A stretch of DNA of 59,430 nucleotides, filler included, from Sphacelaria rigidula (Eukaryota), in the NCBI GenBank assembly GCA_964200075.2. It is 4 parts of 4 records of this genome, joined end to end, with 100 filler letters (N's around TTAATTAATTAA, not from the genome) between each part and the next. Parts side by side here need not be neighbours in the genome. Positions count along the whole stretch, not along the records: positions 29,771 to 44,550 come from CAXNAA020002050.1; 3 more parts are not named here. The stretch is one strand, 5' to 3'. This document shows, piece by piece, positions 4,580 through 43,100 of the stretch. Each line of letters starts with the position of its first letter. Position 1 is the first letter of the stretch. The notes beneath the pieces were generated by a model, which searched no databases, was not told the origin of the DNA, and saw only the letters and a list, made by a program, of their open reading frames with translations. Made by a program: the position numbers and the translations under genes.

Positions 4580-5164
4580 TTGCGGAGGTTTATAACCAAG
4601 ATGGCCGCTCGTACCAAAGCCATTAATGGATTGTTAAAAAAGGGGGTTGAGTTCACGTTCACGCCAGAACATGAGGCTACCGTTCGCGAAATAGTGGACG
4701 ATTTGCCTGGCACTAGGGTTCTGGCGTTCCCAGACTATGAGGGTGCTGCGTCTTGTGGCCGTCCTTTTATGTTGGTTACTGATGCCAGCAAGGAGGGACT
4801 GGGGACTGTGGTGGAACAGCGCCAACCGGACGGTGCGGTGCGACCTTTATACTTTTTGAGTCGGAGCACGTTGCCGAATAAACGAAGCTGGACGGCCACT
4901 GAGTTGGAAGCGGGTTCGATCGTGTGGGCAGTGAAGAAAAACCGTCCGCTGTTTTATGGGATGCCTTTCCAAATTTATAGCGACCACCACCCTTTGCGCA
5001 ACTTTTTAAGCTTAGCAGAGAAGGTGCCGCGGGTTCAGCGTTGGCACTATTTTCTTAGCGCGTACACGTACAAAATTTTCTACAAACCAGGTGTCGCTAA
5101 CTCCAACGCTGACATGGGGTCCCGTCTGCCGCAAGCTGATAGTCCGGAGGATGTTAGTGGGTAG
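4580..5164 (+). pseudogene. RT connection and RNase H
   Basis: LVTDASKEGLG, ELEAGSIVWAV, FQIYSDHHPL, RVQRW, YKPGVANSNAD. Confidence 0.92.
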
Positions 5165-5979: not shown

Positions 5980-7200
5980 CGGGGACGAACCTGTGCGAAC
6001 GTATGTCCCATTGATGCTGAGGCCCTGGGTGATGGATCAGACGCACAAAGAGGCAGTGCACCTTGGGGAAAAAGTGACCCTATCGCTGCTGCAACGGTAT
6101 TATTGGTGGGTAGGGATGAAAGAGAGTGTGAAATTCTGGATTAGACGCTGTTACTCATGTCAGGCCAAGAAATCTGATCGGTACACGGTGCGGTGGCCTC
6201 TAGTCTCGCTGCCACTACCGAGTCGACCAGGGAAAATGGTAGCGTTTGATTTCCTTGGCCCCGTGCCGACAATAAAGAGGGGTAACAGACACATCTTCCT
6301 CATGGTGGATCTATTTAGTAGGCACGCGGAAGCTTACGCGATCACCTCTGAAGAGCACTCGGCTACCGGGTGTGCTGCGATCATCGTGGGGGATTATGTG
6401 CCACGATGGGGTTGCCCGCACACTTTCTTGTCGGATCGAGGGGCGGAGTTCACTTCCGCGGTGTGTAGGTCGGTCTATGAAATGATGGGTGCGGTAAACC
6501 GGTTCACGAGCTCGTACCACCCTCAGACGAATGGGATGTTGGAGCGGTTCAACCACACTTTGTGTCAAATGCTGTCTTATTTGGTGGTGGACGATCAGAG
6601 CAACTGGGATGAGTCCTTAATGCATGAGATCTCAGCTTACAACAATAACATCAGTAGGGGTACCGGGTTGTCTCCAAATCAGGTACACATTTTGGACGGT
6701 ACCCGCGCATGCCCATGACTATTCTGGAAGGTAAGGGGGTGCGGGGGCACCAGAGTTTGAAGGCCGATCAGTTGGATTATCTCCAGCTGATGAGAGAACG
6801 GCAGGTAAAAGCGCACGAGTTGGTGAGGCAAGAAGATTTTTTGAGCAAAGCAAAACACGAAGCCAAGAACCAGGGTATTGAGGAAATGGCAAACCGCCGG
6901 TGGGTAAGGCGGTGCAGTGGGTATTTGTGTATCATGATAAAAGCACCATCACCGCGGGGGGGGGTAAGGCGGTGCAGGTGGCGTCGAGTACAGCCCGGAA
7001 GTCTTTGGCGCTGTCAGCAAAGCTGGCTCAGTGTTGGACGGGGCCATACAAAATTTTATTCGTAGGACCGGGGGTAACCTCGGAGGGTGAACAAGTGGGT
7101 AGGAATTTACTGTTGCTGGAGATTCGACGAAACGAGCCAGGGGTCAACATGAATTCCAGGGTGTCAGTGGCGAGGTGTAAGAGGTGCTGCAACCCCCATG
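5980..7200 (+). pseudogene. Integrase (HHCC, DDE core, GPY-like motif), frameshifted
   Basis: HKEAVHLG...CYSCQ, VAFDFLGP, MVDLFSR, LSDRGAEFTS, YHPQTNGMLERFN, WTGPYKI. Confidence 0.93.
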
Positions 7201-20100: not shown

Positions 20101-23100
20101 ACTTTTTGTTTTGCGTTCGATTTTTTGTGCGTACTGTTTGATATACCTCGACATGGTGTTGGGCTTCCGGTCGCGTCGAATTCCCCAGGTGGGCAGTTTA
20201 CTCAATCCCGCACGGCAGCAACCTGCTCACCGTATTCCCTCCGACGGCTCTTGCTTCTGCAATCGTCCCTGGCTTCCACGCGCGCTTTGCAGAACCTGGA
20301 GTGCATCGACATCTCGTACCTGGAGGAGGGATCGGTTCTATGGGAAAGCGGTGCCGGCACCACCGTTTTGACCGACAACGACGAGCCCAGCGAGAATGAT
20401 GAAGACGTCTCTAGTGGCGATGGCGAGCCAGGTCATGTGGAGAGACCGGCCTCGCCGCCACCGAAAGACGGCGTCCAGGAGGAGAAAAGCCCGGTATCGT
20501 CCGAGGATGGTGATGATGCTGATAGATCAGCGGCAACCGCTGCAGCCGAGGATTCGGCAGAGAACGACGCGGTTTTGGCCACGCCCACCACGGGCGAGAC
20601 AAACGGACATAGTCCACAGCGACGACTTCTCGCACGGAGGCGCCGTGGCATTCTGGGAATAAGGGGAGGTGGAACAAAGAAGGAAGAAGAACCTGCATTC
20701 AGTTTCGCTACTGAGCTGTTCTTCTTGACGCACCGCGCGCTACAGGTCATCGTGAACCCCCTCAAGACCCGGAGGGATAAAATGCGTGAGATCATCGACA
20801 GGTCCGCGCTCGCCGAAACGGGCGTTTCTGCCTCCGCCGAAATTTCAGGCGGAGACTCGGCTGCCGCCGTTGCCGCCGCCGCCGGTGGGGGCGCCATCTC
20901 CCCCGCCGCGATTGCGCTACTCAGACGGGTCGTTTTCAAGGAGACGGATATGGCGGTAGCACTCGGCTGGGTCGTGGAAGGGTTCGGGTGTGAGGCCGTC
21001 ACGGGTCTCGCATGCCAATTCGGCACTTTCACTGCCGCTTGGCTCAAACGACAAATGAGCGCCAGACTGAATGATGCTAACCGTTTCGCCACCGGCGGTG
21101 CGGGGGCGGCGGTGACTGTGGGTGTTGATGGCGTTGTAGTTGGTGATCGCGGCCCAGTCACCGCGGGCTCGATGTCTTCTGTATCCCCTGGGCGCATATC
21201 CGGTGAAGGAGATGCAGTGAAGGCAGCGGCGGCGCAGACATTTGCGAGGGTTCCCCCCGCGCTCATCGAGACGATGTGCGATGCGTGGGTAGCGGCCATT
21301 CTTGAGGGGCAAGGAGAGGAATTCCTTACCCGGAGGGCCGCGGAGAACGCCGCTTATTTTTGCGGGGAGGTTATGGAGCAGGTGAGACAAGCATAATCTG
21401 AATCATCAATCGGTAGGCCCACCACGAGTGCGCTGCGTTGAGACTCCGCTGCTGTCGTTGGGGTCGCTGTAACTGTAGCTTATTTTCAACATCACAAGGC
21501 AGGGTGCCCTGTCTGATGGCTCGAGGTATCACAGTGGATGCCACGCCGATTGGGTGGATGGGAACAAAGGGCGGCTGCAATGTAGGTTCGATATCGCCGC
21601 CGCTTGTCCAGGCTGTACTGTCCAACACCTTCCCCTCGTACTAACATGGTCTTGCATCACCGTGAACACCGCGACCAAGTCCAATATTTCCCGGTTTGCT
21701 CTTCGCCGCTTCCTTTAACAGGTCTCTCTCGCTCTTTGCAGGAGGACCTTCCTTCCTCTTCACTCGTGCGAGATATTGCTGATTGCATTCGTTCCCATGC
21801 ATTGCCCTTTCACGTCCCGAATCGCGAATGACTTCGATCAAACCCATCCCACCCCTCCCATGAACCACGCTATAGGTCGATCTCAGGTTGTGGCCACCGA
21901 CGCAATCCAAGCTGGTGGACGTGCTCGAAGCTCTCATCCGATCAGGGACGAAGGCCCTGAACAATAAAGGGTCCCGGGGCTACCAGGTGCGACACTCTGA
22001 CTTTGTTATGTTTAATATTTTTTGTTGTCTCGTAGATTTACCGCAGGCCTCCACATTCTCGGTTTCCTTTTTCTCTATCCATGCTTCAACACACTGGACA
22101 CATCAACACTTGTGCAATCCATTTCGTACGAATGACGAGGTTCAACAATGATGCGAATCAGTCCTCGCGCACGAATTACAGGTTGTCAGTCATCGCGTTT
22201 GATTCGTGCCATTCAAATGGAGTCATGCTACGATAGGGGGGAAGGGGTGTTCGATTCCGCGAAAAATGGGCTCGTAGGTGCTTCAGACGACCCAACACAC
22301 TCGCGGTGCACTTGTATTCGGGTAAAAGCGGTGTCAATCAGTATGAGTGAGTGTTATACATCAGAAGTAAGCGCGTTCGAACAACCGTTGCTATGAACGA
22401 CGATTGTACGTAGAATTTATTTGAAGAAAACGGCCCAAAATACCCCCCCCCTATGGTAGAATGGCTCAATGACGGCCAGGAAAAGTATTTACATTCAAAC
22501 TCATGCCGCACGAATCATAGGTGAGCGCTACGTAAGAACCGCTGTTCTTGCACGAATCACAGTTGGGCGAGACGTATGTTTGGTTCGTGCCGCAAAAGCA
22601 ATGGACGGATATAGTACGTTTGCCTAGGGTTCTATGAATGGCGCGTGGAAAACTGTGCGTTGCATTTGTACCGTACAAATGTCAGACGAGAAAACGTACG
22701 TTTGATTTGTGCCATACGAGTGGCGGGCGTGGAAAACATACGTTTGATTTGTGTTGCACGAGCGATGAGGCGGGAGTAACGAGCAATGCACCGTTTTTGT
22801 ACAAATCCCGCTATTGAACCGTGAAAAAGACCAAGCAATTTGGACTTAACACAATGATGTGGCCGGTTTTCTCCTGACACTCCATCACTAAGGTTTCCTC
22901 GAGTAGGGCACTTCCAGTGCACAGACTAAATGTGTTGTACATGCTGCTGGAAGGCTTACAGCCCGCACACGTACCCCGTCCCACGGGAAACTGAAGACCT
23001 GCCTGCATAAGTAAGTGCGGTATAGAGCACCGCAAATATCCGATGCGACTCGGTGCCAGCTACAAGGCCGTGGCAGCAGTGCCAGTGTTGGTAATGGTGT

Positions 23101-26100
23101 GGTAGCTTTGTTCTGTGGTGTTGACGACGACGACGACGACGACAACGAGAAGGAGGGCGTTCGGAATGCTCTTGTCAATGTATGATTTATATTCCCGTTT
23201 GTCCATTCCATTTCCGATCCTTTAGCTTGCGAAATGTCCGAGATGTTCTCGAACCCCCAGAGTGAAATGAAAACGGCTAGTTGTGAAGACCCATAAACAC
23301 CACAACGCGTCGTTATCGAGGAACCTCACTCACTGCGTATGGGTCCTCGCCACCGGTAATCCCCCCTCAACTCACAGAAAATCAAACGTATTCTATGGTA
23401 GTTATCAGCATTTGGGTGCGTGGTGTATGCATGAAGAAGCTTTATCTTTCGACCGTTGCGTCACCGTTGACCTTTGGAGGGGCCTTGACATTGTCCGTTT
23501 GAACAAAAACACTTTGATACGATGAGAAATGACGATGGGGTATGATGTCTTACGCTCCCTTATTGCGATGTGCGCATGAATCATGCCGTTGGAATCATAG
23601 CTCGTCATCACGAGGTGCACAAGGGTAGAAAAAGTACGGACCACACCTTATGAAATATGCGATAGTGCCGTGCGGCGCGAGTGATCGGCGGGAAAAATAT
23701 GTGAAATAGCTGTCCCTTGCGATTGGGGGGTAGAAAAAAAGCTGTGGTAAAATTGTGTTTTGTGAATAAAATATCAGGAACTAGTACGGAAGGGTAGTTG
23801 CACACCAACGGGATGTGGGAAAAGTCCCCGTTGAAATCGGAGAGCATGAATAGCGGATGCAATCACGTACGTATAGACCGTGCCGTGCGAAACACGAGTC
23901 CGTAACATATGTATGTACGAATCACAATTAATCTACGAATCGCGTGGTTGACCCGTGGAAAGAAACGAATATGGACGAATCGTGATTTGATCCGTCCTGA
24001 ATGCGAATGGCTTGCTCATGTTACCGCGAGCCGGATCGGTGTCACCTTGATTGGATATACGTGGGAAAAATGATTGTCAAATTGACAAACCAACATTTTT
24101 TCATAATTTACTTAACCGAACTGCTGTACCAAGGTATCTAATCAACCATTGCATTCATGAAGCAGGGCTCCATGTTCTGGGGCACCAAGCGAGGCTTCGC
24201 CGGAGCGATCCTCGATGACGACACCCTGCGATGGACGCTCCCCCGGCAGTTGATGAGGCTCTACGTGTCTATCCAGTCCGTGGAGGGACTGGCTGCCGAG
24301 CTACACCTAAGCTTCTTCAAGTATGGGTGAGTTCATACCACACTTGGTCATTTTTGTACTGATGACAGTGATCCATTAGACTATCCCATTTGTTGTGTGG
24401 GCAACCGTGCACTTCGAGTGGCTAAACCAAACCCCGAGATGGATATACGCATCGAAGATCAGCTCTCCCACGTTGCTTCATCTCATGGAGTCTGGTATTT
24501 CTTACAAGTGCCGCCTAGGACCCCTTTCATGGTTCGCCCAGGACCCGTCAGAGTTTCATTCGGCTTGTTCGGGCAAGCAGAAGCGCGTAGCTGAAGAAAG
24601 ACCATGCCACCACCTTCGTGGTCGTTCTCTGCTCGCCATGACGATGTCAGTATGATGAGCAAGTGCTCACACATCATGTTATTGTCAGCATCATCGTCGG
24701 TGTCGAGTTGTATCGTTTCTAGTGCCGGGCCCCTCGAGTGTTTCATAATGCCGTATTTTGCACAACAGTATCCTCCTGTAGACAACTCTCGGATCACAGG
24801 TTTAGGCCACTGGTTATCTCTCAAGAATCCTGGGATGGACACGTCAAACATCTCTTGGCGCGAAATATTGGACGAGTACTTTGTCAACAGCTCTTTGATG
24901 AGACACCTGTACAATTTCGTGTCTATGAATGAGTGCGCCGAACGAGTATAATGTTGAACCAGAGGATGGTCAAGACCGGACATGTGGAACCCCAGCCCGT
25001 ACCAGCCAGTTTTGGGGGTGCTTGTTTCGGGAACGGTACACGAATATTCTGCAAAAACAACAATGTTTTTCGGCACTGTGCGCTGTTTCGGTTGTGGGGC
25101 ACGCATGAGAGTGCCGAATAAGCCTGCGCCTTTTGATCTCGCTGCGCCCCGGTGGTCCAATGGTCCAACTGACGTCATTAGGGCGGAGAGAACGCAGGTT
25201 CGGTTTCCGCTGCGTTGGGTTTTCATTAGAAGTACCGGATTTCCACTGTTGACAGCGTGAGGAAGTACGGGAGTAGAGAAACGAGCTCGACTGAGCTTGT
25301 TTGAGGAGAGTTAACGCGACGCGAGAGTGCTGGCCATGATCCAATCCGCGAGACCAAAATTCAAGACGTGTACGATACGGGGAAGACACGGTTGATTCCT
25401 TGAGCCCATGGGCTCGTCCCGAGGAAGGAAGAAGGCTAGAATAAAAGTGAGACCAAGAAAATACAGAAGCGACAACATCTGCGCACATGGAGAGGATTCT
25501 AGGGGACCACGAGCTGGTCCTGGGAGGCACGTCCGTATGACCTGCGGTCACTTTCGGAGAACTTGGCCGACTATTGAAAACGACATTCGCAGCCTTGATT
25601 GCACTCTCTTTGGCACAGAACTATCGACCCTGGCCACACAATCCGCGAAGAGTTTTTGAAACGAATGCGTGTGCTGCAACATTCAGCGCCGAACGCTCCT
25701 GGAGAAGGGTGAGGTAGTTGCTTGTGCGAGATGATTTCTCAGACCCCGCAGTCGTCGGAATTTTCGAAAATGATCCACATGCAGCTCAGAGCCTCCCACC
25801 GCGCGCGGAGTATAAGGGGTTCGGGGGAAACTATTGTATTATGCTATTTCCGGTTGACCTCGGTTGATGCTTAAGCACTGCTCGACACTGTTATTGCACA
25901 CACGATTCATTCGAGAATAATGCAAGAGAAACCCGCTGAGTTCGAACACACATACCCCACCCGCTGAGTTCAAGAGCGTTCGATCTATTTGCCTGTAAAT
26001 TACTATTGGATAAAGATGTAGGCACCCAGTTGCTCGTGAACTACTTAGGGACTTATGAACTAAAGCGACTCTCCTGTTCGAATTTCACCTGCTTCATGGC

Positions 26101-28799
26101 CATTTCTCTGGCTTGTGAGAAGTTTACACACGTATCTGCACCCATACTACGGGAACCTTGATCTTTTTTTTGTCTCGTTTTGTCACCTTTTGTTTCAAGG
26201 CAGTCCATATCAACTACAGCTCGGGATGACTCAGTATCACCGAGAGTCTGAATTATCTGAAATTACAGTTGAAGCGATTGCAGCTAGCGGCATTAATTTT
26301 CCATGCCCCATCCGGACATTCGTGTGCAATTTCAATTGTATAATCGAACGAGTGCCCGGGAGACAATGGTGGTGAACGGACCGTTTTTGTTGTTTGTAGT
26401 AGTAACACTACTAGTAGGAGAAGCAGCACTAGCAAAGTTGATGAAAACCAAGGGTTACGTTCGACAATACCTGCCAAACCCGCCGCTCATGTTTCGCTCG
26501 TCACCCCCCGTTACATCGTCGCCCTGTTTTCGATGCTTGCGACGCACGTCATCCTTTTGCGTGTATCTTAACCTGCCCAGAGTACGGCAGCGTGTCGGCC
26601 GCATCCTCCTCCAGCTGTGGGCGCACCCACTGGGAGACTCTCGCAAGGCCATCCTCGAACTTGTCCGTGCCTCCATGTCGGCGACCACCGCTGACGGCGG
26701 CGCTATTGGCGGAAGCAGCACTGGTGCCGCCGCCGTCCTGCCGCAGAACCTGCTAGCGAGGGATTTCTTCACCGCAGCGTTCGACGTGATTACGATGTTC
26801 TTCAACAGTGGCATGGAGCATCTGAGGGACGGGGCGATTGAGGAGAGCGCCAACGACGGTAGGCCGCTCCAACCGGGCCACCCACACTGGCAAAAATACA
26901 GCAACGAACGCAAGAGTTGCAAGTCCTCGCTGGACAGCATGTGAGGCGGGTGTTGTGCGTTGGGGAGCAGGCGCCGAGGCGGGGTGTATTTGTTGCGGTA
27001 ACGTTATATTTCAATTTTGCTTGCGAAGAGATCGCAGGACTACAGAAATACGTAAAATGTACGAGGATGTGCTTCCGTGGTGTTCGTGTTTCAGCTAAAA
27101 CATTGAAACCCGAAGCTGGTGTACTTCCTCTGTCCCATAAGTAAAGGTACCTACATTTGTACGGGTCCTTAACGATGTCCGATCGATTTTTTTAAAATGA
27201 ACTTTGCGGTGTTTTTGGGGTTCAGAAAACGTGCTGAAAATTTGCAGCTCGTGCTTGAACCATGCCGCCGAACGGCTGCAAAAACAGTAATCAGCCCAAA
27301 TATTGGCCGTTTTTTGCCCCTTTCCGAGAGGGAAAAAGTGTCGATTTGTTTTTTAATCGCGTGGGGCTTTCTGGCAGCAAGCCCTAGTGAAGGCGGGGGC
27401 GATTGAAGAAAAAAACAAATCAACACTTTTTTTTCCCTCGGAAAGGGGCAAAAGGCGGCCATTTTTGGGTCGACTACTTTTTTTGCAGCCGTTCGGTGAC
27501 ATGGTTCAAGCACGAGCTGCAAACTTTAAACACATTTTCTTAACTCAAGAAACACCGTAGAGTTCATTTAAAAAAAACGATCGGACATCGTTAAGGGCCC
27601 GTACAAATTTAGATACCTTTACTTATGGGACAGAGGAAGTATAATGCTAAGCTCTTCTTGAGTTGCAGTGCTAGGCGCGTATTTGCGTACGTCGGGTGTG
27701 GTGTCAGGCTTCCCTGAGAGTAACACACCTAAGCCCGCCTCGTTAATGGTACCCTCGCGCTTTCAATGGCCTCAATCGGTAGGACTCGCTCTATCCTCGT
27801 GCTGCTGACGACCCTTGGTCAAGAAAGAGAAGTCCTTGACTTGCTCCGTGTGGGAACGCTGGGGATTCGTTCAGCCGCGCTGCTGTCGGTGATGCTCCGG
27901 TCGTTGTACGGCGAGGAGGCTTCGGAGACTACGGTCGCTGAGCCTGAGGAGTGGGGCCTCAACAAGGTGTGTTGTATATTCCGTTGTATCGTGAGCGGCG
28001 TTTTTGAAATATTGCCGCGTTGGATGGAAGGTGGAGTGTTACGTAGCAGCCGTTGGTTCGCATGGCCGGGCAGTCTTGAGCACGGTGCTCATTGTTGCCT
28101 CTGGTACGGCAAGAGATTGTGTGCACGGGGGGCAGTGAGCGAGCGCGCGCCCCGAGATATCCTTTGTGTGCGCTCGAATGTACGTGTGCTATTTGTGCGG
28201 TACCACGGGCGCGGGAAGAGTCACGCAGTCTTTCATGTCAGGGGATAGCGCGCTGCTGTATTAGTGGTCGGCGGGTCACCATTCCGCTCGGCAGAATGCA
28301 TCCACCTATTATTCCCCACCCAACACGCCCACTCGATCTCCGTTTTCCCTTCCCTCCGCTATTTCCATCAAACCAAACACAGGCTGAGCTTGGAGGCATG
28401 GGCTGCCAGCTGCTGGCCGGCCTCGCGGGTCCCGGCCTCGCCAAGACCAAAGCCTTCGCCGCGGCGCTGAAAAGTGTAGACTCCGACTTCGATAGCTCTC
28501 TTCTCGAAGCCGCTGCCCGCGGCCCCGGCGGCGGCTGCCTTCGCGGGGACCTGCTCACCCGTCTGTCGCTTGCCCTAGAGATCGAGGACGAGAGCAGGAA
28601 AATGCGACAGCTTGAAGCCGTCATCGGGGGTGGCAAGGGCGCTGCTAACGACATCGTAGATCCCTTCGAAGGAGTGCCCCACGAGATAGACAACCAGGAG
28701 CTGGAGAGGGAGTACGGGTCCGCGATGGTGGATTTGGTGCACATAGTGGTGGGTTTCGCCGGAATGATTACGCTCATATCCCCTCTTCTGCCTCCATAA
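17197..28799 (+). CDS. Ufd2/UBE4-core (ubiquitin conjugation factor E4-like) protein, spliced. Exons 17197-18138, 18387-18917, 19375-19536, 19848-20078, 20293-21381, 21876-21986, 24166-24326, 26581-26940, 27783-27966, 28383-~28736/28799. 5' and 3' ends uncertain.
   Basis: All nine GT-AG joins are phase-compatible. Ufd2P-core-like motifs in order: SSAFLMSLCALLLRL, CIDISYL, FSFATELFFLTHRAL, FARVPPALIE, SKLVDVL, LMRLYVSIQ..FFKYGVRQRVGRILLQLW, LLSVMLRSLYG..VAEPEEWG. Confidence 0.85.
17349..17714 (+). repeat. 183-bp (61-aa) in-frame tandem duplication in the Ufd2-like N-terminus
   Basis: ARMN..AEE.N...AD..N...RRAALFASRA.AVEDDK...KDAC.V.VPDAT.PV.P occurs twice. Confidence 0.9.
19065..19327. mobile_element. 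Intronic Sola-like MITE (different subfamily)
   Basis: TIRs gagcaatgctacggtaggggtgcac / gtgcacccctaccgtagcatcactc. Perfect TACT TSD. Confidence 0.85.
22220..22467. mobile_element. Intronic Sola-like MITE
   Basis: TIRs gagtcatgctacgataggggg / ccccctatggtagaatggctc. Perfect AATG TSD. Confidence 0.85.
27124..27639. mobile_element. Stowaway-like (Tc1/mariner) fold-back MITE in an intron
   Basis: TA|cttcctctgtcccataagtaaagg ... cctttacttatgggacagaggaag|TA, with ~235-bp inverted arms. Confidence 0.9.
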
Positions 28800-29670
28800 T
28801 GTATTCGCATTTTGTAGACGTCGAGCTGTGTCCCGCCTTGCTCTTGTTGCCGGGGGCGTGGGGTGGGGTACTGAGCAGGGATGGTCGGGTGTTTCACGGT
28901 GCGGCGGGGAAGTGCATTGATCAATCCACTTCTTGTCTTGAAGAAGCTTGTCGAGACTTTCTGCCACGGTACTGATGTAGTGCTCGCTGCGCCTGTAATG
29001 ATTCTGCGTCCTGCCCTCCTCTGAAAATCACCCATGAATCAAGACACGGCCTGCAGCTGTGCAGCGCACAGTTTTACCCTGTCACCCCCATTAACCGCCG
29101 GGGGAACCGGCTGCCTGGGTATCCAACATTCACCGCTCTGTCTCGCGCCCGTTGCAGTTTTGTCTGGTTGACCTCGCATACATTTTTCACACGGACACCA
29201 GGTGGAATCATTGTCTCCAGGACACTACTTCGACCGTCGTCGCGAAGGGTGCACGCTGATAAATGCCCGCAAGGTGAGCCTGTCGACGAGACGCACTGAA
29301 GCGGAGTGACTTGGACGTCGACCTTACGTTTTGATTTGCTAGTAGTACCCGACCATTGTTGGGGAGGGGTATTCATGTGCCTCCCTCGCTTCCTTACGTT
29401 ACGCACACACATACCCATCGGAGATTGGGGTCGTTCGAACATATGACATCACACTACAGTACAATTAAACTCGGGGAAGAGAAACACACAACTGGGACTT
29501 ACTTGTCCGCAATACCCCCCCCTCCCCCCTGGTTAGACACCCGTGAGGCAGTGTAAAAGCCGTGGCTGTCTCTGGAATTGGCGATACCACAAAATGAAGC
29601 AACTCGTTGTAGACTGTCATCCAAATACAAGATTATCAGCAGGCTTCGGGCCGAACACTCTTGGCAGGAT

Positions 29671-29770: not shown

Positions 29771-32700
29771 GAGTTGAACCTCATTTGTTTTTTCAACCCC
29801 ATTTTCGAAAATCGGCTGTTAACAGGGGCCAGGTGGAGGGGTCGCACATGGGGTGGTGGCAGCTCCTGTTTTTCTCTTGGCAACGTTGTCGACCGCCTCA
29901 AGGGGTGGGGTGTTCTGCAAACCGCGTGAGAACAGAAGGCGGCCTGCCTCGGTCAAGGGCATAGTGCGTGGCGCAGACTACTGTTTACGGAGGGGATGCA
30001 GGAAAAAGTAGCTCAGCTGATACTGACTTCGTGGGGGTGGACATCGGTGTGAAGTGAACAAGCGCATCCGCGCTAATCGATACTCTGTCTCTACCACAAT
30101 ATTTTGATGGCACTTTGAAGCACTATTCACAGGGATACGGGCGTATGTACAGCATCGATCGAAACCCCGTTCGTCATCTGAGCAAAAAATTCTCGTTTTG
30201 ATGCAGTCGGGTGCGTATGGATTTTCAAGCTCTCGGTCCCAAAAAGATGAAGCAGCTTTGCAAGTGCGGGTCGAGTAGAGTATACTCGGTTGCGGGATAT
30301 TTTGAATGTCGTACTTACAGTACACGGATTGGGGGTAGGGTTTTAGAGCGATTTTTACGGCGACAAACCCTGGTTTTTACACGTGGGAGCACTTCAGCCC
30401 GTCTACAGGCGGTTTTCTCCCGTGGTTAGATTTTTTGGACCCCAGTCCGTTGGGATCGCGCTCCACTTACTTTGTGGGTAGGATTTCGTACCACGCAGTT
30501 TCGTCCCTGATGCCTGCCATAAGAGAAGATGCGCAAGTTTTCCCCGACGAAAAATTAGCGAAGCAAACCCGACTACTGTAATGCATCTATTCCTGTGCTC
30601 AACTCGTGCTCTATGCTGCAGGGTTGCGGTCGTAGCTGAGAATGATTTGGATGGAGTTTGAACCATCATGTGAACAGGTGTTTGAATCAAGCTCCATCTT
30701 TTTTCAACTATTTTTTTGTTTTGAAGCCCCGTTTCAACTTTTTTTTTAATCAGGCGTTCTTTATGCGCCTTATTCCCGTCCTTGTTGTGGCATTGTAGCG
30801 GTATCCCCCCACGATGCGCGCTGTCTAGCACGCGGGCGAGACGACAAGTTGGGCACCCGAAGTTTTGTCGATTATTAAAGAAATGCATATTTTCCTGAGT
30901 TTTTGAGTTTGGAGCTCACAACCTACACACCGACTGCACGAGTCACCATCCCTAATCGACCACGTCAAAACGTTCACTCTCCACAAATTCGTGTCGGCAC
31001 AACGGCACAGCTTTGAACGAGGTGGGAGAGACGCTGTCAGAACGGAACAATTACGATAAACTTTATATGTTCATGGGGATCATCGGTTCCATACAAGATC
31101 GCACGAAAAAAATAATGTCGGAGCGGAAGCGATTGCAGAGGGGTTTACGAAGGTGAGTGGAAATCTGAGAACGTGCTCTTTTGGAGCTGGGTGGACACCG
31201 ACACGTTGGAATGATCTGTTCTACTTGTCGGGTGAATTCCAGGACATTTCCTCGGTCTCCGGTGGCCGCAGTTTCTATTTTCGCCAACCAAGAACTTGAG
31301 TTCAAGAACAGTCGGGAAACGGTCAAATACCGAGAAATTCGCCATATTTTTCTGGATTTCACCCTTCCCGGACGAGAATTCTTCTTTGACCAAAATAATA
31401 ACTGCGGCCACCGAGGAAGGGGGAAACGTCTAGGGCCCACCTCAATGCGTAACGCAAATCATCGCAAGGAGTTAAATTCCCACTTCAATGAGTGACGCAA
31501 ATCATCGCAAGGTGTCAAATTCCGCCTAGCTCTCTGTTGAGGCGTGGAACTATGCAAGAGTTATAACAGGGCAATTTTCCGGGTTTTGATTTCAATTTGT
31601 TCTCGAGTAGATGGGAGTATATCGTTTCACGGGACCAACACTGCTGCTGTACCGCATTGTCGACTCCACGAGAGTGTGGCGTGCACTGTATGACACCGCC
31701 CATGATGCTACACCCTACAGTACGCTCCGACGCGGCAATCGGCTGCAGGAAGAAGACATACCCCTGCCCTTTCGGTTCTCGCTTCACTAGTTACCAGGGC
31801 TCGGGTGTGTGGATATGTTAATATCCACGCGTGAGCGGGGGTGACCAGCCCATACACTCCGCCCCCCATTGCGGCAACGTACGAGAAGCTGAGGATAGTT
31901 GAGGTTGATTGATTCGGATCTGGGGTCAGCGGACCACTTCCTTTGTGCGATCATTTTTCACTCTCACTGCTTACACCCACGGTTTCCGAATACGTCAAAT
32001 GAAGATACTAGAGAACGGTTGATGGTGTTGAATTACGTCCGATTGCCCTGCCTGAACTCCGTATTGTTCGTCCACTTCGCTCTGTCAGCGCGTGCGGGGT
32101 AACTTGAATCGCGTGACGATGGCCCGAGCAAAAACAGAAATGTTCGACAGTAACACATGTTTCCTACGTCCGCCAACGCGTGCCGGCACCCCCGCCCCCT
32201 CATGAAAACGACAGCTGCATGTGCGGGTCCCGTCCATGACGACTCTACGGCAATGGAAAAGAGCGGTTGCGTCGAGATCGCCAGAAGCGATGAAGACCAT
32301 CGCTTGGGCATTTCAATGCGACAACCGTGGCGTTGACTCGGGAGCCATATCCCTGGCTTTTCTCAGAAGCAAGCAGTACGCAGACCTGCATGATAAACCC
32401 CAGGCCCAATCCATCGCGATCAACATGCTCGTCAGGTACACACCACCCGTCTAATGCGGCTAGATAATCACATGACCCTTAGTTTATCGCATCTTGTGTC
32501 AGGGTCAATCGCTGGGGATGTCGACGTACGATGCATCGTGTAACGCACCCGAACCCGACGCCCACAAAAACACAGACGCCGACTGTGCATCGTTGAGGCA
32601 CGCGCTGGAGCGGCCACCCTCTGATCACACACCGCTCAACATGGATAATGAAATCGCTCATTTCACATCGGCGATGATTACCGTTTTCAGACGATAATGT

Positions 32701-33208
32701 TTTTCATCAACATCGGACTCTCGTACATTCAAGATCCCGTGGAAGGGTCTACGAAAACGAGAGCACCAGACAGAGTTGCCGGTGGGCGGGATATCAGTTC
32801 CGCCATCCGCGGTTTCCCTTGGTTCCGTCATGCAGCACCTAACGGGTGAAAAGTCTTATGTACTCTTCACAGCACACATTATATATTCGCGCTGCCCGCA
32901 GGTTCCAAACGGCGAACAAAACGAATCCTAAAGCGAGTGAATGGGGGCGTATCTCCACAGATGCACAAACAGCCGCAACCCTCCTGCAGCGTTCAGAGAG
33001 GCAGATCCCTCGTGAAGCGTGGACCGACGTCTTCGAAGAGTAAGTTTGCATTAATTGTAACACGCGCGTCGATTGCGGTGGGCCGTGACTGCTGTCGTAG
33101 GCTACAGTATTTCGGAAGCAAGGATCGCGCGTGCAGCACATGTTTGTGTCACGCTTAGACTTGCGCCCCTTACTCTAGCAACCTTTCTGGCATCATTCCA
33201 CCTTGCAT

Positions 33209-33685
33209 AAAAAGCGTAGCGTTTCAGCAGGTGGCATAGATAGCGCAGCGTTTCGGCAAGTAGCGTAATCGATACTAATTTTTAAATGGGGGGCATAATC
33301 GAGCTTAAATTCTCCAGTAGAGTTGGCAACAATGATCTAAATGTCGACGTGGTGTGATATGTTGGGGTGGAACTCTGCTTTCATCGACCGCGGCCGGGTC
33401 TGATATACCAGTCATTCAAACTGCAGGGTTGACTTTCGTTTCTTTGTTTCACTCCATATATCTAAACATATATTCACAGCGTAGCGTATAGTATGCATGT
33501 AGTGATCGGTGGGTCTGCATCCGGTCAAAAATGGTGCTTGTTGGATATTGCGAGCATAATTGAGCATAAATCCCATCTTGCGAGCATAGATCGTCGAGCA
33601 CATATTTTGTGAAATTCGAGCACAGATTGCGCTCCATGAGCCGAATCTTTTGTGTAACTACTAGCATTACAAAATGACTTTACTA
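33209..33685. mobile_element. ~477-bp insertion interrupting an exon
   Basis: Flanked by a GCAT duplication (33205-33208 and 33686-33689). Removal gives the in-frame DNLSGIIPPC-MRGKSAATL. Confidence 0.6.
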
Positions 33686-36600
33686 GCATGAGGGGCAAAA
33701 GCGCTGCAACACTCACGGGAGGCATTTTGCGCTCCGCGAACATCATCGCGACTAGGGTTGCTCGCGAGTTGACTCGCGGCACATACCGGCTGGAGGATTT
33801 CAAGCTGCACGTCCCGGACTTCATCACATCAGTAGACAACAGCATAGAAGAGACACGGGCAAGCCTGCCCGAGGAAGAACGGAACGGAGCAGCCATGAAG
33901 GCGTTCGAAGATGTCTGTCTCGACAAACTCCATCGGCGGCTGGACCTGGTACGTGACCGACACACAAAAGCCAAGAGTTAAATGTTAGATAGTGGGTAAT
34001 TCGGGCGATAGGTCGCCGAGACGATACAAACGTAAGGTGGATCGGACATGCTGCTGTGATAAATAAATCCAAATCGCGCAGAACGGGCTTGCGACGAGCG
34101 AAATTGGCGCATGCCAGTCATGGGCACAACAAGGATGGCACACCCACGTGATCAGGAGACAAGTGAAACATTTCCACGAGGTTGTTCACCTGCATCTTCA
34201 ACCACGGCCTGTTTTCGCAGAAAGCACAAAGAGGGGCCCTGAGGCGGTACAACGATAGCTGGAGGAAGAGGTGGGACGACGCCAACAACACCATCGCTCG
34301 CTTGAAGTTGGCGAACGCGGGCGACGAGGAAGGCGATGACGAGGATGCTGGTGAATCGGAGGAGGATGACAGCGATTGTCAACGACCGGCTGACGGCAGC
34401 CGCAAAGACGAATTGTGTCCCTCGTGCGACCCATCATCATACGTCAGGTGAGAAGGGATGGAATGAATCAACACGCAAGCCGTTTCGACGGTGCCGAGCA
34501 CACCAGTTGACCTCCCGAAGTACAATGCTACCGCTCTAAGATTGCCACGTGTAATGATTAAAACAACAATCACCTTACCTGGAAGACCGCCAACCGCTCG
34601 ACACTTTCATGCCGTCCTCGCAATGGCAGATACCGTTGCGTACACTGCGGGATGAAGTACCAGACCTTTTGTGAGCTGCTTGTGCCCGTCTCCGAGGATG
34701 CATCTCTTGCCGAGAGGAAGCTACGTCTCTGCCTTGTCTGCGAGGACGAGCCGGGGCGCCAAAAGAGGAAAGGGGACAGAACTGACGGGGTCGGAGGCGG
34801 AGGGAATCCTAAAAAGAAGGGGAAGAAATCGTCACAGGCAGGGCAAATGCTGCCCCCTGCCGGTCCCACCGTGGAAAGCAGAAGGTGCGAGGATAGATTG
34901 CCGTTGTGGAGACTGTGTCGTCGGCTAAAGCTTACCTTTAGATCGCTCCCTTGTACGACGGTTGTGACAGCATGCATAAGTCGGTCGACATGCGACACTG
35001 GGACTGTCAAGCGCAGCTGTTTATAGGTTCTCCTGCCTTTCGTTCAACCTCGCGCACTGCTCGACTATGAAAACCTGACGGTGCAGCCGCCAGCTTAGCC
35101 ACCGCAGTGGAACGCACGCCGAAGAATTACGCCGGATTGGCCCCCACCCCAACGCCAGCTCAAAACCGCCAAGCCAAACAATGAATGGCTATCTACCACG
35201 TGATGTTCGATTCCACGGTGCATGGAGGGCCTTGTTTACTCGACACGGACGAAAACAAACAGAAGCGTGAATATTCCGATCTGCTCAATATGAGGATATT
35301 TTATCATATCGATTTTACGTGCCGGTTGTTGCCCCCCCCCCCGAACCAACCACTTTCTCGGGAGGGGCTATATCGGAGACACACGCTACACCCCGCGACG
35401 TGCGGACGACTAGCGCGCAACGAAGGGAAACTGGCGATGCTATTGCGTGCTTACGACATGATATTGTACAGGGCTTATCACACGGGCATACACGAGGATA
35501 ATCTACTCCGCCGCCACTGTGCTCTTATTGACCAACAAGAGCCACTCCCTGTGAAGAGACCACCGAAGCTTATCATAGTCTCCATCGATGTCGAGAAAAC
35601 AATGCTAAGCACGACACATGATGACAACAAGGGATACTTCAGGTGGTTCGTTGAAAAGGTACTGGAAGTCTTGCAGCCGATGGGCACCATCGTCTTTGCA
35701 GTCCCGCGGCCCTGGAATCGACACGAACATCGTATCCAAGGTATCACGGTCTGCACGGTTCGTGACAGGCACAACCGCGGCATCGATGTTGCTGAAAACA
35801 GGGTAGACACATCTGAGTCGGTATTCGCCACACGAGCGCGGATAGGGTAAATTGTGTGCTTCGTTTCGTCCGTCACATTGAATCGCCGCTTTTCTACATC
35901 CTTCACTGCTCTGATACGGCATCCTGTGGTGATGTTGATACTCCCCTGGCACCCCCCGAACATCCACCATCGCTGCGATCCACCGCGGTGCGCACCCCTA
36001 GGCAGGCGCGATTGAAGCCGACCCTTCAATGGTGGTCGAAGACGACTACGTGCTAGTAGAGTACTCCAGCCGCCACGGAGGCTCCCGAAAGAAACACGAG
36101 AGGTATCATTTTTACCCTCACATGGAGGGCATCTTAGTGGCACACAAGCAACCGAGCGAAGAGAACAAAACATTCACGGTCAACCCGAGGGTGACCTTCG
36201 CCGATCCCTACGGCACGAACACCAACGGCAAAGTGCCGGAATGCTGGCAAACGATGGGCGGGGAGCCAGAAGACAAGCTCGCGTACAAACAGGGCGGGCC
36301 TGTTGGGGGACCCGTCAATTCCTTCCCGCCGCGGGTACTGACTACGTTCATCAACAGGTGATAACATACTTTCTGACCCCGTATCCTCCTTCCTATGTGA
36401 GACAGTATGCACTTTCGACGATCGTAGTGGAAACTTCACTTCCGGTGGGCGGGTGGCGTTGGAACATGCCGCGCCGTGAAAGACATGAGGTGAGTCGATG
36501 TCATTGTAGGCCTTGTGGCCAACAACACTTCTGGATGTTGTGCTTTTGGTCGAACGGAAGGGGGTCCGAAATACCAGAGAGATCCGAGGCATGCATGCAC

Positions 36601-37441
36601 GTGGTATTTAATACATGTTGGGACAAGTCTCAGCGAAAGCTTCGAGCGGGAATCATCAAATTCGAAATGCTCCCCACAGTGATTAGTTGTGGTGAATCTT
36701 TCATGACGTCGGGATCATCGTACTGTCATCGGACAGGTTCACCCTGGCAGGAGATGCCGTGATGGGGATTGGGGTGGAGAGCACGCAGCTACTGGAAGTC
36801 GCTCTCGAGCTTGGTCGACCCACGGAGCTCTTCCTCCACAACCGCGGTCTCGCGACCGAGGTTGGGGGCCGAATGGAAAGGGCCTTCCGAAAGGCCTTCA
36901 TGTCGGGGATGTTCAAGGCAAGCCCCCGAAAAACCGAATGATTGCCCGAGGTATCGCGATCCTTATTCCGCGTCTTTGGCCGATGCGCAGGCACGGAATC
37001 GGATTTGATTACTCGCGACTAATATCTGATGTGCCAGATGAAGCTCACACCAATGATCCCGACCTCGCGTGTGTTCATGCGTCACCTTTGCCAGCAGTAT
37101 GATATCAGCGGCGAGGTGTACGTGGGGCCGACGCTGCTCCCATCAGCGCTGCCCGCAGACACAACGCCGGCAGGATTGCTGGTTCGGGGTCCGGGAGACA
37201 CGACCGAAAAGATCATGACGGGTGCTGCACAGACTTTCGGCTACAAGCTGGAGGTGAGAACAGCGCTGCATGTGGGGCGATAAGGACACTGTGACCCCGT
37301 AGTCCTCTTTTCCTTCGCCTCTTACCGCCGTTTGCGTCCTGATATGTACGTGAGTGTCACATGATTTGAAGGGATGTCGGGGGTGTACGAGAAAAGAACA
37401 AAAACGAACACCTGTGAACCCTCCACCCCCCTACCCGAACG

Positions 37442-37796
37442 AAACGACTAAGGCAATCAACAGATGAGTAGCCCCCCCCCCCCTACCCGAACGGGACGTG
37501 GTAAAGGGGGAAATCCGGGACGTGAGCAAAGGCGGTATGCGATCGTATGATGCATTAGACAATAGTGAGAAAACGATGGCTCTCCTAGGAGGTAGATGGT
37601 GGCCAAAGACGGTGAAACAGAACGGGGATGCAAAAGGTTCTGGTCCAATACGTGGAAAAAGGTGGTGAGCTCGTGAAGGAACGTGATGAGCGCAAAAATA
37701 TTGGAGGGTGTCTATTAGGAGTAGGAACGGTGCTCCGTCTCGAAAAATATGCGTGGTCAATGGTCAAACGACTGAGGCAAGCAACAAACGAGTACG
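37442..37796 (+). mobile_element. Two nested poly-C-associated LINE 3' fragments (copy C 37442-37471; copy D ~37489-37796)
   Basis: Both end gagta(c)g followed by a C-run. TSDs cccccctacccgaacg and ccccctaccc. Copy D encodes a decayed ORF end: DALDNSEKTMALLGGRWWP...RNGAPSRK.CVVNGQTT.ASNK. Confidence 0.8.
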
Positions 37797-39624
37797 CCCC
37801 TCCCCCTACCCCCCGAGAGGTCCAAAAACAAAAATGGGACATAGGTGCGCGTTTTGTTTTTTCGTGCACCGTTGGAGATGTAGTTTTTTCTTGCTGCGTG
37901 GAATAGAGTTCTTGCTGCGTGAAATAGAGTTCTCTTTCCCTCCCGCTTCACCGCACTTCATGAAAAAACAGAGTTTTTCGGGTCCATTTATGGGCGCGTC
38001 CACATCGCGATGCCCGGGGGACATGTGGTTTCGGGAACAACTACACATCCGTGGTTTTGAGACCCCTGTCGAGCACTGATTCCAACTACCGCCCCTCCTC
38101 CGTATCCCGAACTGGCTTTCTCATGTTTGTTGCCGCTGGCCGTCTCTACCTTGTCCACCGTTGATTTCGGTCGCAGCGTTCGACGTTCAATCAGGAGAAC
38201 GAGCTGTTCCTCATCACGAAGCCTGGCCAGCAGAAGATCGTATACCCTGAAATTCCCTTGTGGGGAAAGTACAGGGTATACACCACGCCCAGAGAGGCTG
38301 TATATTCGATACCTCAAGAAATCCTGGATCAGCAATGTACTCGCATGGTATTGATCGCATCCAACAGACAAATCAGGCGCCTCGTAGAGCCCGGCAGGGA
38401 AGCCTGCCAGCCGGAAGCGGCCCTGTATTTGGAGGTCTCAGACACTTGCCCATTCTACCACTTGGAAAGGGATACGGGCGGGGAGGGGGTTGTGATGGGG
38501 ATCAGGTCGAAAATACCGCACAATGGCCTCAGAGACTCGTACATTACCGCTGCGATAGGCGGCGCAAATGGCACGCAGCATGCTGTAATAGCCAGTGTGC
38601 AAGAGAGTCGAGAGAGGAAAGGGAGGCTCGCCGCGAAGCAGCCTATCGCGGTCACTCCCGGGGATTTGGTCGTAGGTGGGCCGGGATTCGAGCAAAGGTG
38701 GCTGAAGGTCAGACCCGACACGGATCGAGAGAGGTTGGAGGACGAGGTGGCCCCCGATGATGATGACGATGACTGTAATACTGGAAGTGGCGGCGATGGC
38801 AATGATGGTGGTGGTTGCAATAGCAATAGTGATGACGCTGAAGTCTCGAGTTGCAGTCGCGCAGTTGGAGAGTGAAAGCAAAAAGTTCACATACAGGTCG
38901 GGATGCGGACGCAAACGTACAGTTCAGGGCGGGGTCGAGATCCTGCCATGTAGTATGATGCGGTGTTGCGATGGTGTCTATGACGGGACGGTACGAAGCG
39001 ATATTGAGGTGGATGTCAACGATTTCTCTTTCGGCTGAGACATTGCCGCCTCATATATGCTCGAACCGGATTGGAAAGCTCGACGGGTATTTGCAGTACG
39101 GTTGAGTCGTGAAATAAAATATCAATGTTGTGCATCGGCCGTCAAAGAAGGAGAATATTCACGCTTTTTCATGCCCCATTCTTCATGAAAGCTCAATCAT
39201 CCGCTCGGCACATCACTGCGTTGGCAGTGATATCCCCGCAGCACATCACTGACGAGCAACTTGACGACCGAGATTTTTGTCTGGACGCGAGCCTCGAGAC
39301 AAACAGGAGCGAGAACATCGTCGACATTTAAACACACGTTGTTATGGTCCGTCGCCCGCAGCTAACCAGGGATCGGCAGCATGTGCAACCACGGACGCAC
39401 TTCCCACTTCTCCCCAAAATTACACATGAGTAGCGTCGTGCGGTACTCTTGAGGGCTTCTTGATATCCAACGGCTAGGGTCTTCAAACCTCATTTCATTG
39501 ACGAACCTCATTTTATAAAATATCCTCTTAGATGATGAAGCACCCAGCGGGGAGGGAAGTTGAAAACGGAGATGTAACTTCATCAAAAACGACATGAGGC
39601 TGTCTACCCACGCAAGCAAACACT

Positions 39625-40173: not shown

Positions 40174-43100
40174 TTAGTCCTCCTTCATGTACATCTCATC
40201 AGCAGTAGGTGCCTCCCTGTTGTTCAGGACGTCGAATTCAGCTTCAGCGTCCACCAAGCCAGACTCATGTCCTTTGAACCGCGCGGGAATACATGAACGG
40301 ATATCTTTAGCGGCGATCCTGGGAATGTCTCCGTACGCAGGAATGTGCTCGTAGTTGGCCTTTAGGAACATAACGATCTCCACCCAGTATTTGCCAATCC
40401 GACTCTGGTTCGTGACAAGCAGGTTACCGTAAGCACTGGAGTCACGCTCAACCTGCGCAGCGGCAGTCCGACTGCCAAACACCTGCTGCGCGACTGGCGC
40501 GAGGTAGGGGTACTTGACCTTGCCTTTTTTCCTCCACCAGGGCAACACGGCCTTGCACTCCAACTGTACAAAAAACGAACGGACAGGGAGGCAGTGATTG
40601 CATGTTGCACATAGCAAACAAACACAGCATAATGGCGAGGGATCTTTCATCAGATGAGGCTCATCGACTACCGCTCATTTACTGATCCCCGAGGGACCTA
40701 CCCAAGGTGTATTAAATGTAAACGTTTACACAGAAAAGTGGAAGCAGAAAAAAAGAATCAGAGGGAACTGGAGCAACAACGACAAAAACAGGCAGGAAAG
40801 GAGGGGGAACAGAGCAGAACTTCCGAAAACAACAGAAAAAAACAGGAAAGGCCAGCCTCAGCAGCATGGCTTCAGGTAAGGAGGCAGTCCGCAAAACAAA
40901 GCGTCGTGCGAAGCATTGTACATCACGACAACCTAATCGTCCCCCCTCTGTAAACGTGCTCCAGCGGTCGTCCGTCACCCTCGCAACCGCACTTGGAATT
41001 ACACTGATCTCGCTCGTGTCCATGTACAGCGCTTGATGGCGCGCGATCTCATCTTCACAGCCCGCTCCAACAGGTTGTCCTCCTTGCGGCCCTCCTCGTC
41101 GCCTTCTTCAGCACCGCCAACGATGGGACTCCTGCCGAAGGAAGAAACGTTACTGCGGGTGAGAGTGCGTGAGCCGGGTCTACAAATGCATAAAACACGA
41201 GATCTTACAAATCGGGGATGGGTCTTTTATTGGGGATGAGAAACCCGGATAATGAAAGCTTTCGTATTCACACCACATCTTCGAAGTATGGTTCCACTTC
41301 TTCACCTAATGATAGCTATTGACAACTGCTACACGCAATAGAAATTTGGATTCTAATCGCCGAAATGTTGGGGTCCTAGGTGAAAAACCAATTTTGAAGA
41401 ATTTCGGGTGTCCGAACGGACGCCATAAATGGTTCCGAAATTGTTTTTTTTGCTAGAACCCCAACATTTCGGTGATCGAAATCCAAATTTCTTTGGCGTG
41501 TAGCAGTTGGGACGCCAAAATGGTTCCGAAATCATTTTAACTAGGACCCCAACATTTCGGTGATCAAATTCCAAATTTCTATGGCGTTTAGCAGTTGTCA
41601 ATAGCTATCAGTAGGTGAAGAAATTGAACTATATTTCGAAGATTTGGTATACATACGAAGATTTTCATTATCCGGGTTTCTTATTCCCAATGAAATATCC
41701 ATCCCCAATTTGTAAGATGCCGTGTTATAAGCGCTTGAGTGACTGTTGGCCTGCGGGGCCGGCCGATGCAGCGTGCAACTGCAGCTCTGTCGCAGCGTTC
41801 ATGGCCCTCGTTTTGATGTCGATCCAGCAGTGGGCACGTTTGGTCAATACCTCCTTGTTCGACGCAGGGATCAAGCCAGCTTTGTCGCTGGGCAGGACAC
41901 CCCTGTCATTTTCAGTCAGTCGGACGGCCTCAAGGTATGAACCGTTGTTGTACGGTGGGGTGAGAAGCACGGCGGCATCGCGGTAAGGGAAAGGATCGGG
42001 GGAGGTCGTGCCCCACACCCGCCCGTACAGCCGCGAAACAAGGGTTCTGCTGAGCTCTTCCCGGGTATTGATGGCAACGCCATGCAAGTTGTCCGGCGAA
42101 AATATCTTCGAGGGTAGCGGTGCTTTGTCCCCGTTCCGCCCCTGGCGTCCCTGCTCAGCTTCCGGGGAACCCGGAGCGAGGGGGAGGTCGAACACTCTGA
42201 GCGGCTTCGTGGGGTCGAGCACCTCCACCTTCAATTCAGCGAAGGCCATGTGTACCTCTACAGTCATCGGCACGTCGCCCTGCTGGTCGTCACGCGTAAT
42301 GGCAGAATGGGGTTGCTGCAGCGAGTACAGCTGCAGGATGGCGTCCTTGTTGCTGCCTCTGTCAAGAGGGTACTCCCCGCCTTCGTCGACGTGGAGCTTC
42401 CTGAGCACGTGCCACAAGCGGATAATGCGCTCCAAGATGCGAACCAGACTCAGCCATCGCTGGGGCGCATGCTTGGTGATCTTGAAAATCTCGTTCAGCA
42501 TCTCGAGCTGAAGCTCCTCGAATCTCTGCTTGAACGTGCTGGACTGATTCACCCTCGCAGCGGACTTGATGACGAGCTTGATGACGTCGCGCGCGGCCGG
42601 TTTCTTGGACTTTTGAGGGTCGGCCCAGGTACCAAAGGCGTTTTCGGCGGCCTTGTCGGTCAAGTGGCAGGTGCACCAATCCCATGGGATGCCTTGCTTC
42701 CTCGAGAGGATGTTGGTGCATATGGCCTTGACGTCGGGGCCACTGTTCGTTGTCCCACCAGCAATATCGGGAAGCATTATCCCGTACTCCGCTAGCGTCG
42801 CCTTGAAAATGGTGAACAGGATTTCGTTGACCCTTTCCGCTTATTGTACCTCCGCCGAAGGGGCGTAGTGCTTGACCTGTACAGAAGAGTATAAACGACA
42901 AACAAGGACCAAAGGACAGCGAGATGAAACGGCCGTCACGATTTGAACATCACTACCAACTTCTATCAGAAGCAGAGTAGGGTTGCACGCCAGAGGGGGG
43001 AGGCGACGAAGCAATATCATCCAATTTTATAACGGCAGTCATCTCGAAAACTGGAGAGGGTGCCGTGGAAAATATAAATATATTTTCCAAAAAGGAAAGG

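Follow-up and report, generated by a model that had tools for sequence, protein, structure and literature searches.

The DNA analysed here, referred to as the window, is a stretch of 59,430 nucleotides from the brown alga Sphacelaria rigidula (assembly GCA_964200075.2). It contains a copy of a multicopy brown-algal DNA transposon family, probably of the Sola1 type, which carries as cargo a gene of about 12 exons. Three of these exons hold the motifs in which an original prediction, made from the sequence alone, had recognised a beta-class amino-methyltransferase scaffold with both catalytic signatures replaced. We consider it likely that these exons encode a methyltransferase-fold module of a transposon accessory gene, catalytically dead and kept for DNA binding or scaffolding. 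The three segments from which the domain was recognised are real, whereas the extent of the gene on both sides of them (about 31.0 to 38.9 kb), its context as a transposon accessory protein and the decay of this copy outside the domain had been missed.

Replacement of the catalytic motifs throughout the family

Within the module, the SIDV sequence lies where the original prediction had placed it (35581-35592), at the position of motif IV. The proposed intron between 36357 and 36737 begins with GT at 36358 and ends with AG at 36735-36736, and the in-frame joint reads FPPRVLTTFINR followed by FTLAGDAVMGIGVEST and, further on, RMERA. A second GT-AG intron (35741-36005) connects the SIDV exon to the exon containing DDYVLVEY with the frame kept, and the same joint is uninterrupted in the NCBI brown-algal gene model P0002 and in the Ectocarpus model P0024. 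In the third exon, motif I reads GIGVEST (36765-36785) and the motif II position is occupied by Leu (36834-36836) instead of Glu.

The alignment of homologues, counted as distinct rows from the fetched loci, a subset of all matches, showed that SIDV-like and GIGVES-like motifs are kept family-wide and that no copy has SPPY or DPPY. Specifically, 42 matches to exon H gave 27 distinct rows, 25 of them covering motif IV, and xPPY was found in none of the 25; the consensus is S-[IL]-D-[VAG]-E, with Ser in first position in 21. For exon J, 62 matches gave 49 distinct rows, none with DPFxG; here the consensus of motif I is G-[IV]-G-V-E-x-T, a Glu replaces the motif I glycine in 48 rows, and the acidic residue of motif II is absent from all 47 rows read at that position. 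The Ectocarpus motifs are DLTR, GIGVETT and, at motif II, Val. What is missing throughout the family is thus the aromatic residue of xPPY, the Asp and the glycines of motif I, and the acidic residue of motif II. According to the accessible text of PMC4738411, the amino-methyltransferase mechanism needs the aromatic residue and two prolines. As these and three features of S-adenosylmethionine (SAM) binding are all lost, inactivity is the best reading under established chemistry, and we infer from the sequences that the module would be unable to bind SAM or to methylate.

The replaced motifs are old, because they are common to Sphacelaria and to Ectocarpus at about 30% identity. The ratio of nonsynonymous to synonymous substitution rates (dN/dS) was estimated across exons H to J by a simple counting method, which is rough at high synonymous divergence (dS). 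It was 0.27-0.57 between the window copy and 8 copies of the same subfamily, and 0.17-0.25 between the window copy and 10 copies of other subfamilies (dS 0.65-2.1; 2 more pairs were saturated). Purifying selection between subfamilies with relaxation within them is the pattern of an element-encoded protein. Family-wide replacement together with purifying selection rules out recent decay of the motifs, and the proposal of a long-standing pseudo-enzyme is borne out by the replacement seen across the family and in Ectocarpus and by the dN/dS between subfamilies.

Fold of the module

The beta-class scaffold is supported by a profile-profile match and by structural matches led by beta-class enzymes. 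When a 15-row algal profile was aligned by hhalign to 11 beta-class methyltransferases, domain residues 87-236, a span that runs from motif VIII to motif II and includes motifs X, I and II, were matched with E=1.8e-5 (probability 78%). In a global alignment, SIDV falls on DPPY, GIGVEST on DPFAGSFT, and the Leu on the motif II Glu. The match to amino-methyltransferases therefore stands for the family profile but not for the window sequence alone, which is at chance level: against a hidden Markov model (HMM) of the 11 sequences the window domain scored 4.3 bits, the best of 500 shuffles 4.4, and P0024 11.8. In sequence terms, the resemblance to beta-class methyltransferases is beyond chance at the level of the family.

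An AlphaFold2 model of the Ectocarpus protein P0024, built from a 17-row alignment, was searched against 48,161 chains. Four chains had a Z score of at least 8, and the top five are beta-class or putative beta-class enzymes: M.MboIIA (1g60; Z 8.7, root mean square deviation 6.7, 165 residues aligned), the best match, followed by CcrM (6pbd; 8.4), TTHA0409 (2zie; 8.1), M.RsrI (1eg2; 8.1) and M.BceJIV (8urk; 7.9). This search carries weight because one enzyme class holds the lead. Class I methyltransferases also predominate among the Foldseek matches, and the circularly permuted order of the beta class (motifs IV-VIII, target-recognition domain, X-I-II) is found in the family, on the low-confidence model and in the hhalign match.

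Architecture of the intact gene

The intact gene encodes, in order, a ParB-like domain, a helical region, a PHD-like finger, the beta-class amino-methyltransferase fold and a C-terminal domain; conservation in divergent copies was used to delimit its exons, which in the window span about 31.0 to 38.9 kb (Table 1). Exons F, G and H are joined in one spliced contig of run X3. The joint between exons K and L (37253-38177, GT..AG) was found in the three runs X1-X3, which are RNA by guess, and was absent in the fourth run. As the contigs are a few percent diverged from the window sequence and the runs are RNA by guess, these data show splicing for the family and not expression of the window copy. 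In the same three runs, contig depth at the K/L joint is far above that of exons F-I, hinting at a C-terminal-only transcript.

The ParB-like exon, present in the siblings, carries VLDGNHR and has 44 matches on 43 contigs of the same genome. The ParB motif L-D-x-N-H-R occurs in all seven aligned copies, and D-G-N-H-R, read against the GxxR nucleotide-binding motif of ParB/Sulfiredoxin-like domains, in six of them; a single-sequence model of this exon had a predicted local distance difference test (pLDDT) of 44.9. The C4HC3 pattern of the finger is found in the siblings and in the Ectocarpus protein P0030, with a slightly shifted His spacing, and the finger has no Pfam match. Exon L aligns with P0030 at 36% identity across 105 aa (E=6e-14).

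Pfam searches with single exons and with the Ectocarpus homologues gave no methyltransferase, ParB or PHD match, and sequence searches against the PDB no significant match. No relatives were found in viral and metagenome contigs, where the search returned one unrelated ParB-like protein only.

Two apparent boundaries of the gene were discarded. The 221-aa frame at 35185-35850 is not the gene start, its first 95 codons being intron that is frameshifted in the siblings; a homologue search with this frame gave 72 candidates, none significant. The stop at 36941 is not the gene end, since the gene splices onward into exon K. At the intron between exons J and K, the window copy and several siblings have a GC donor (36918-36919), while read-through translations of other copies, with Val for Ala, imply GT.

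The transposon carrying the gene

Sibling copies of the transposon were identified on 8 other contigs, along with one partial copy, at 83-94% identity across several kb. The right boundary is sharp at 39529, with the CTGTT end present at 29 of 30 loci and unrelated flanks. The ends of the family, AACAG...CTGTT, are inverted repeats like those of the Ectocarpus element Sola1-1_Ec32 (AACCG-CGGTT, with a 4-bp duplication, in a table of PMC12477816); the AACAG and CTGTT ends of gene-bearing copies were seen on separate contigs, not on one. Ends of a related type are very abundant (2,279 candidates, 40 scored). The gene is likewise repeated in the genome, with own-genome matches for 55 of 65 candidates with exon I and for 77 of 81 with exon J, and protein identity between subfamilies of the transposon falls as low as 35-55%.

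About 1 kb beyond the ParB-like exon lies a transposase gene on the opposite strand, whose first exon has 58 matches on 55 contigs. This exon is present on 31 of the 43 ParB-bearing contigs, and in all 31 on the opposite strand. On contig C5190, a later exon of the opposite-strand gene matches DUF7869 (E=7.4e-20), a domain known from Sola transposases, and the gene may therefore encode a transposase of the Sola1 type.

Sola1 elements are described as producing a 4-bp target duplication with a preference for AWWT (PMC3845634, accessible part). Among 45 distinct flanks of our family, position -4 is A in 32 and position -1 is T in 29, with 20 having both and 10 a strict AWWT, a bias in line with that preference. 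Of the candidates examined for target-site pairing, one pattern match was due to chance, one gave no pair, and one was a two-ended 418-bp piece with unmatched flanks. This last piece (L156:738-1155) is a near-perfect palindrome of two right-type ends, lying at a rearranged site with no matching duplication.

Internally deleted derivatives were also observed (C21821, C11961, C15079, C8007, C6615 and others; L105-L111, L118-L120), in which the transposase start and exon J are kept but which are missing from the list of exon I matches.

Relation to the Ectocarpus gene

Of 7,999 candidates scored with the exon I profile, a single one was a longer protein. It is a model from Ectocarpus, and its cluster has 11 members, including the 1,116-aa model P0030. 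This Ectocarpus cluster spans several species at 90% identity or more and is labelled expressed. P0030 is collinear with the Sphacelaria family (ParB-like, helical, C4HC3 finger, methyltransferase-like and C-terminal domain), with the methyltransferase-like domain at about residues 575-820. The accessible text of PMC12477816 describes Sola1-1_Ec32 as a 21.5-kb element of Ectocarpus with a 1,104-aa ParB and methyltransferase gene opposite the transposase, and predicts that this gene makes N4-methylcytosine (4mC) or N6-methyladenine (6mA), modifying its own element. An architecture of about 1,100 aa with ParB and methyltransferase domains opposite a transposase is found in our family as well, the window copy being without the ParB-like exon. 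Judging from architecture, size and element type, we take P0030 to be the published 1104-aa protein or an orthologue. From Ectocarpus, then, the gene was already known as transposon cargo; reading it as a dead enzyme goes against what was predicted there. In the literature covered, with most subscription journals outside its scope, PMC12477816 alone mentions the gene, and its accessible part does not remark on the loss of the motifs, the presence of a finger or the expansion into several subfamilies.

Exon I also had 23 matches in the representative library, 19 of which are exon-sized relatives that were read. Another exon I relative, P0010, belongs to a cluster whose 131 members come from ENA records, with those listed lying on long contigs. 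This suggests either that a further host holds many near-identical copies or that many assemblies are represented.

State of the window copy and its neighbourhood

The window copy is decayed and non-autonomous. Its transposase gene is reduced to the start, and a deletion of about 1.1 kb removed the ParB-like exon together with what lay between the two genes. Exon B is frameshifted because it is one base shorter than in the siblings; contigs of all four runs have the extra base at 31105. The His ligand of the finger is replaced by Tyr, where all 8 of the covering same-subfamily siblings have His. Exons F to L are open.

Table 1. Coordinates and strand of the features of the transposon copy in the window.
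Feature	Position	Strand	Remarks
Sola1-like DNA transposon copy, remaining part	29822..39529	+	Left part truncated beside another element end and an assembly gap
Transposase, remnant of first coding exon	29825..29962	-	MPLTEAGRLL start; matches the reading-frame start of L102
Deletion junction	30180..30181	.	About 1.1 kb gone; window jumps from 2876 to 3999 of the C1473 copy
Exon B, helical region	31013..31152	+	Ends approximate; conserved in divergent copies
Exons C, D and E, middle of helical region	~32231-32436, 32899-33042, 33792-33957	+	Approximate; conservation islands in L024, L030 and L035
Exons F and G	34220 to 34447, 34630-34884	+	Acidic tract and PHD-like C4HC3 zinc finger
Exon H	35472..35740	+	Start of methyltransferase-fold domain; SIDV at motif IV position; acceptor backed by spliced contig
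Exon I	36006..36357	+	Region of strands VI-VIII and target-recognition insert
Exon J	36737..36917	+	Motifs X, I and II; ends at GC donor
Exon K	37095..37253	+	Protein continues beyond the apparent stop; homologous to P0024
Exon L	38177..38875	+	C-terminal domain of unassigned fold and acidic tail
Right terminal inverted repeat	39485..39529	.	Two substitutions in terminal motif of the window copy

Adjoining the copy on its left, another AACAG-type element end (29771-29821) points into the assembly gap, and nested insertions akin to it are seen in C25039 and C2758. Two high-copy repeats lie in introns, 31184-31462 (an inverted repeat) and 37502-37814, and are probably nested miniature elements. 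Elsewhere in the window we observed a decayed hAT transposase by the right end (40174-42840, minus strand; PF05699, E=6.1e-5), with an inverted repeat at 41183-41737; a decayed pol of a long terminal repeat retrotransposon (2447-6718, plus strand; RVT_1 and integrase); and exons that probably belong to a gene for ubiquitin elongation factor E4 (Ufd2) (17197-29000, plus strand; weak Pfam match, E=0.018). The transposon may lie in an intron of this putative Ufd2 gene, across the gap.

Possible roles of the protein

As the catalytic motifs are replaced throughout the family, DNA or chromatin binding is likelier than methylation, and the most likely role is that of a transposon-encoded DNA- or chromatin-binding factor serving its own element. 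In such a mechanism, the ParB-like and pseudo-methyltransferase modules would load the protein onto the DNA of its own element, the PHD-like finger would read histone tails, and the protein would keep the element transcribable or guide the transposase or transposition, the host being one where silencing relies on histone marks. Brown algae are reported, in the accessible part of PMC13076208, to be without DNMT1/3/5 and PRC2 and to effect repression via H3K79me2, and 4mC and 6mA are reported at background in a sister taxon. Much more tentatively, the factor, assembled from a ParB nucleotide-binding domain of bacterial type, a finger that reads histones and a methyltransferase converted to DNA binding, could shield its element from H3K79me2 silencing in a lineage without DNA methylation. 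Such shielding, equally tentative, might be an anti-silencing analogous to that of VANDAL/VANC but built from unrelated parts, and not the work of a self-methylating enzyme.

Several observations weigh against the preferred interpretation. The first residue of motif IV is Ser (21/25) or, in Ectocarpus, Asp, and several polar residues are invariant, so that an unusual chemistry may be possible. PF01555 gave no match in the HMM check proposed by the original prediction, whether with the window exons, 18 alignment members, P0024 or P0030. The model used for the structure search is that of an Ectocarpus protein, not of the window protein, and is poor (mean pLDDT 36.7, with residues ~38-150 at 60-80), and Z scores of about 8 scarcely exceed the common-fold level. 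Support for the ParB-like domain is modest, with a match to ParB-like PHROG 4715 in 3 of 7 members (best E=9e-4) and no significant match in Pfam or the PDB. Among the family loci searched, no matched junction pair indicated a target-site duplication, and the equation of P0030 with the published protein was drawn from architecture, size and element type.

We think it unlikely that the protein still works as an amino-methyltransferase, with strongly deviant motifs, and deposits 4mC or 6mA on the transposon that encodes it. This activity is the prediction in print for Sola1-1_Ec32 (PMC12477816), the module is under strong constraint and retains Ser or Asp at the first position of motif IV, and clades with unusual strand-4 motifs exist according to the accessible part of PMC4738411; however, the base-stacking aromatic residue and both prolines, described there as essential, are missing in 25 of 25 copies, and the SAM features of motifs I and II are jointly lost, including the cofactor-contacting glycine that is Glu in 48 of 49. 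We give similarly little credence to a dead domain acting as a modified-base reader or, as METTL14 does for METTL3, as the inactive partner of an active methyltransferase. Precedents are METTL14, the second domain of fungal Clade 4 and the DIRS1 domains (PMC4738411, same part), and the polar first residue of motif IV would fit. Nevertheless, PF01555 had no match in the genome itself while 13 of 14 controls were detected, a weak result given the exon-wise search and incomplete assembly, and the reported absence of DNMT1/3/5 and the background levels of 4mC and 6mA in the sister taxon (PMC13076208) argue against it. For the modified-base reader suggested by the original prediction we found no evidence, and brown algae are reported without 5-methylcytosine (5mC) DNA methyltransferases in the same source.

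A host chromatin gene, passively captured in the manner of a Pack-MULE or domesticated and serving the host, would account for at least 11 introns, the PHD-like finger and the conserved, expressed Ectocarpus cluster. It is nonetheless improbable, since the head-to-head linkage to the transposase is fixed across subfamilies of 35-55% protein identity and selection acts between transposon subfamilies and is relaxed within them. Least probable is a chance likeness to amino-methyltransferases, with the SIDV exon belonging to a HAD-type or some other alpha/beta domain: taken by itself, exon H resembles HAD-family Atlas clusters (0.81-0.88) and the window sequence alone scores at shuffle level, but the whole domain leads to methyltransferase Atlas clusters with PF01555 (0.76-0.78, a lead only), permuted beta-class enzymes head the structure search, and the profile-profile match spans motifs X, I and II. 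The HAD-like reading of exon H was therefore rejected, as whole domain, structure search and profile match all point to methyltransferases.

The published proposal that the protein methylates its own transposon (PMC12477816) thus has the sequence evidence pointing against it, and a protein that does not methylate fits a host lineage reported to be without DNA methyltransferases. Attention would turn to the binding of DNA and chromatin and away from surveys of the methylome. A chromatin factor that is encoded by the transposon, conserved and expressed would offer a handle, testable in Ectocarpus, on how transposons persist in brown algae without 5mC or PRC2 silencing.

Comparison with known systems

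The closest known system is the gene of Sola1-1_Ec32, which shares the ParB-like and N4/N6-methyltransferase domains, the size of about 1,100 aa, the position opposite the transposase and the large element with terminal inverted repeats and nested insertions. It is described as predicted to make 4mC or 6mA, whereas here none of the copies read, nor P0030, keeps the catalytic and SAM motifs; the PHD-like finger and the C-terminal domain, present here, are unmentioned in the accessible text on it (PMC12477816); and the Sphacelaria family is divided into several subfamilies, with identity as low as about 35%. The Plavaka genes PAG2/PAG3 of red algae are likewise cargo of giant algal DNA transposons, include ParB-like and methylase domains and have been proposed to act on their own element. 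They differ in that PAG2 has a Pfam-detectable PF01555 domain with SET, that a different gene carries ParB along with a 2OG oxygenase, and that the elements belong to the EnSpm superfamily (10.1101/2025.02.11.637652, as far as its accessible text goes).

With the beta-class N6/N4 enzymes (1g60, 6pbd, 1eg2 and M.PvuII, 1boo; PF01555), which are the top structural matches of the family, the module shares the order of motifs IV to VIII, insert, X, I and II and the spacing of X, I and II. Unlike them, the family is without [DNS]PP[YFW], DPFxGSG, the motif II acid and a Pfam match, and it is a spliced eukaryotic fusion protein. A fold without catalytic residues is also known from the DIRS1 domains, METTL14 and the second domain of fungal Clade 4, and DIRS1 offers a transposon-borne dead N6A-methyltransferase domain, which is PCIF1-derived, unpermuted and part of a retroelement (accessible part of PMC4738411). 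The algal module differs from DIRS1 in being beta-class, in residing in a cut-and-paste element and in being fused to ParB-like and PHD-like domains. Bdelloid N4CMT is an active host enzyme that acts on transposons. It resembles the algal protein in joining a bacterial-type amino-methyltransferase to a chromatin reader in a eukaryote (8s9n, Z 7.1; PMC8885841), whereas the algal protein is encoded by the transposon itself and is apparently dead.

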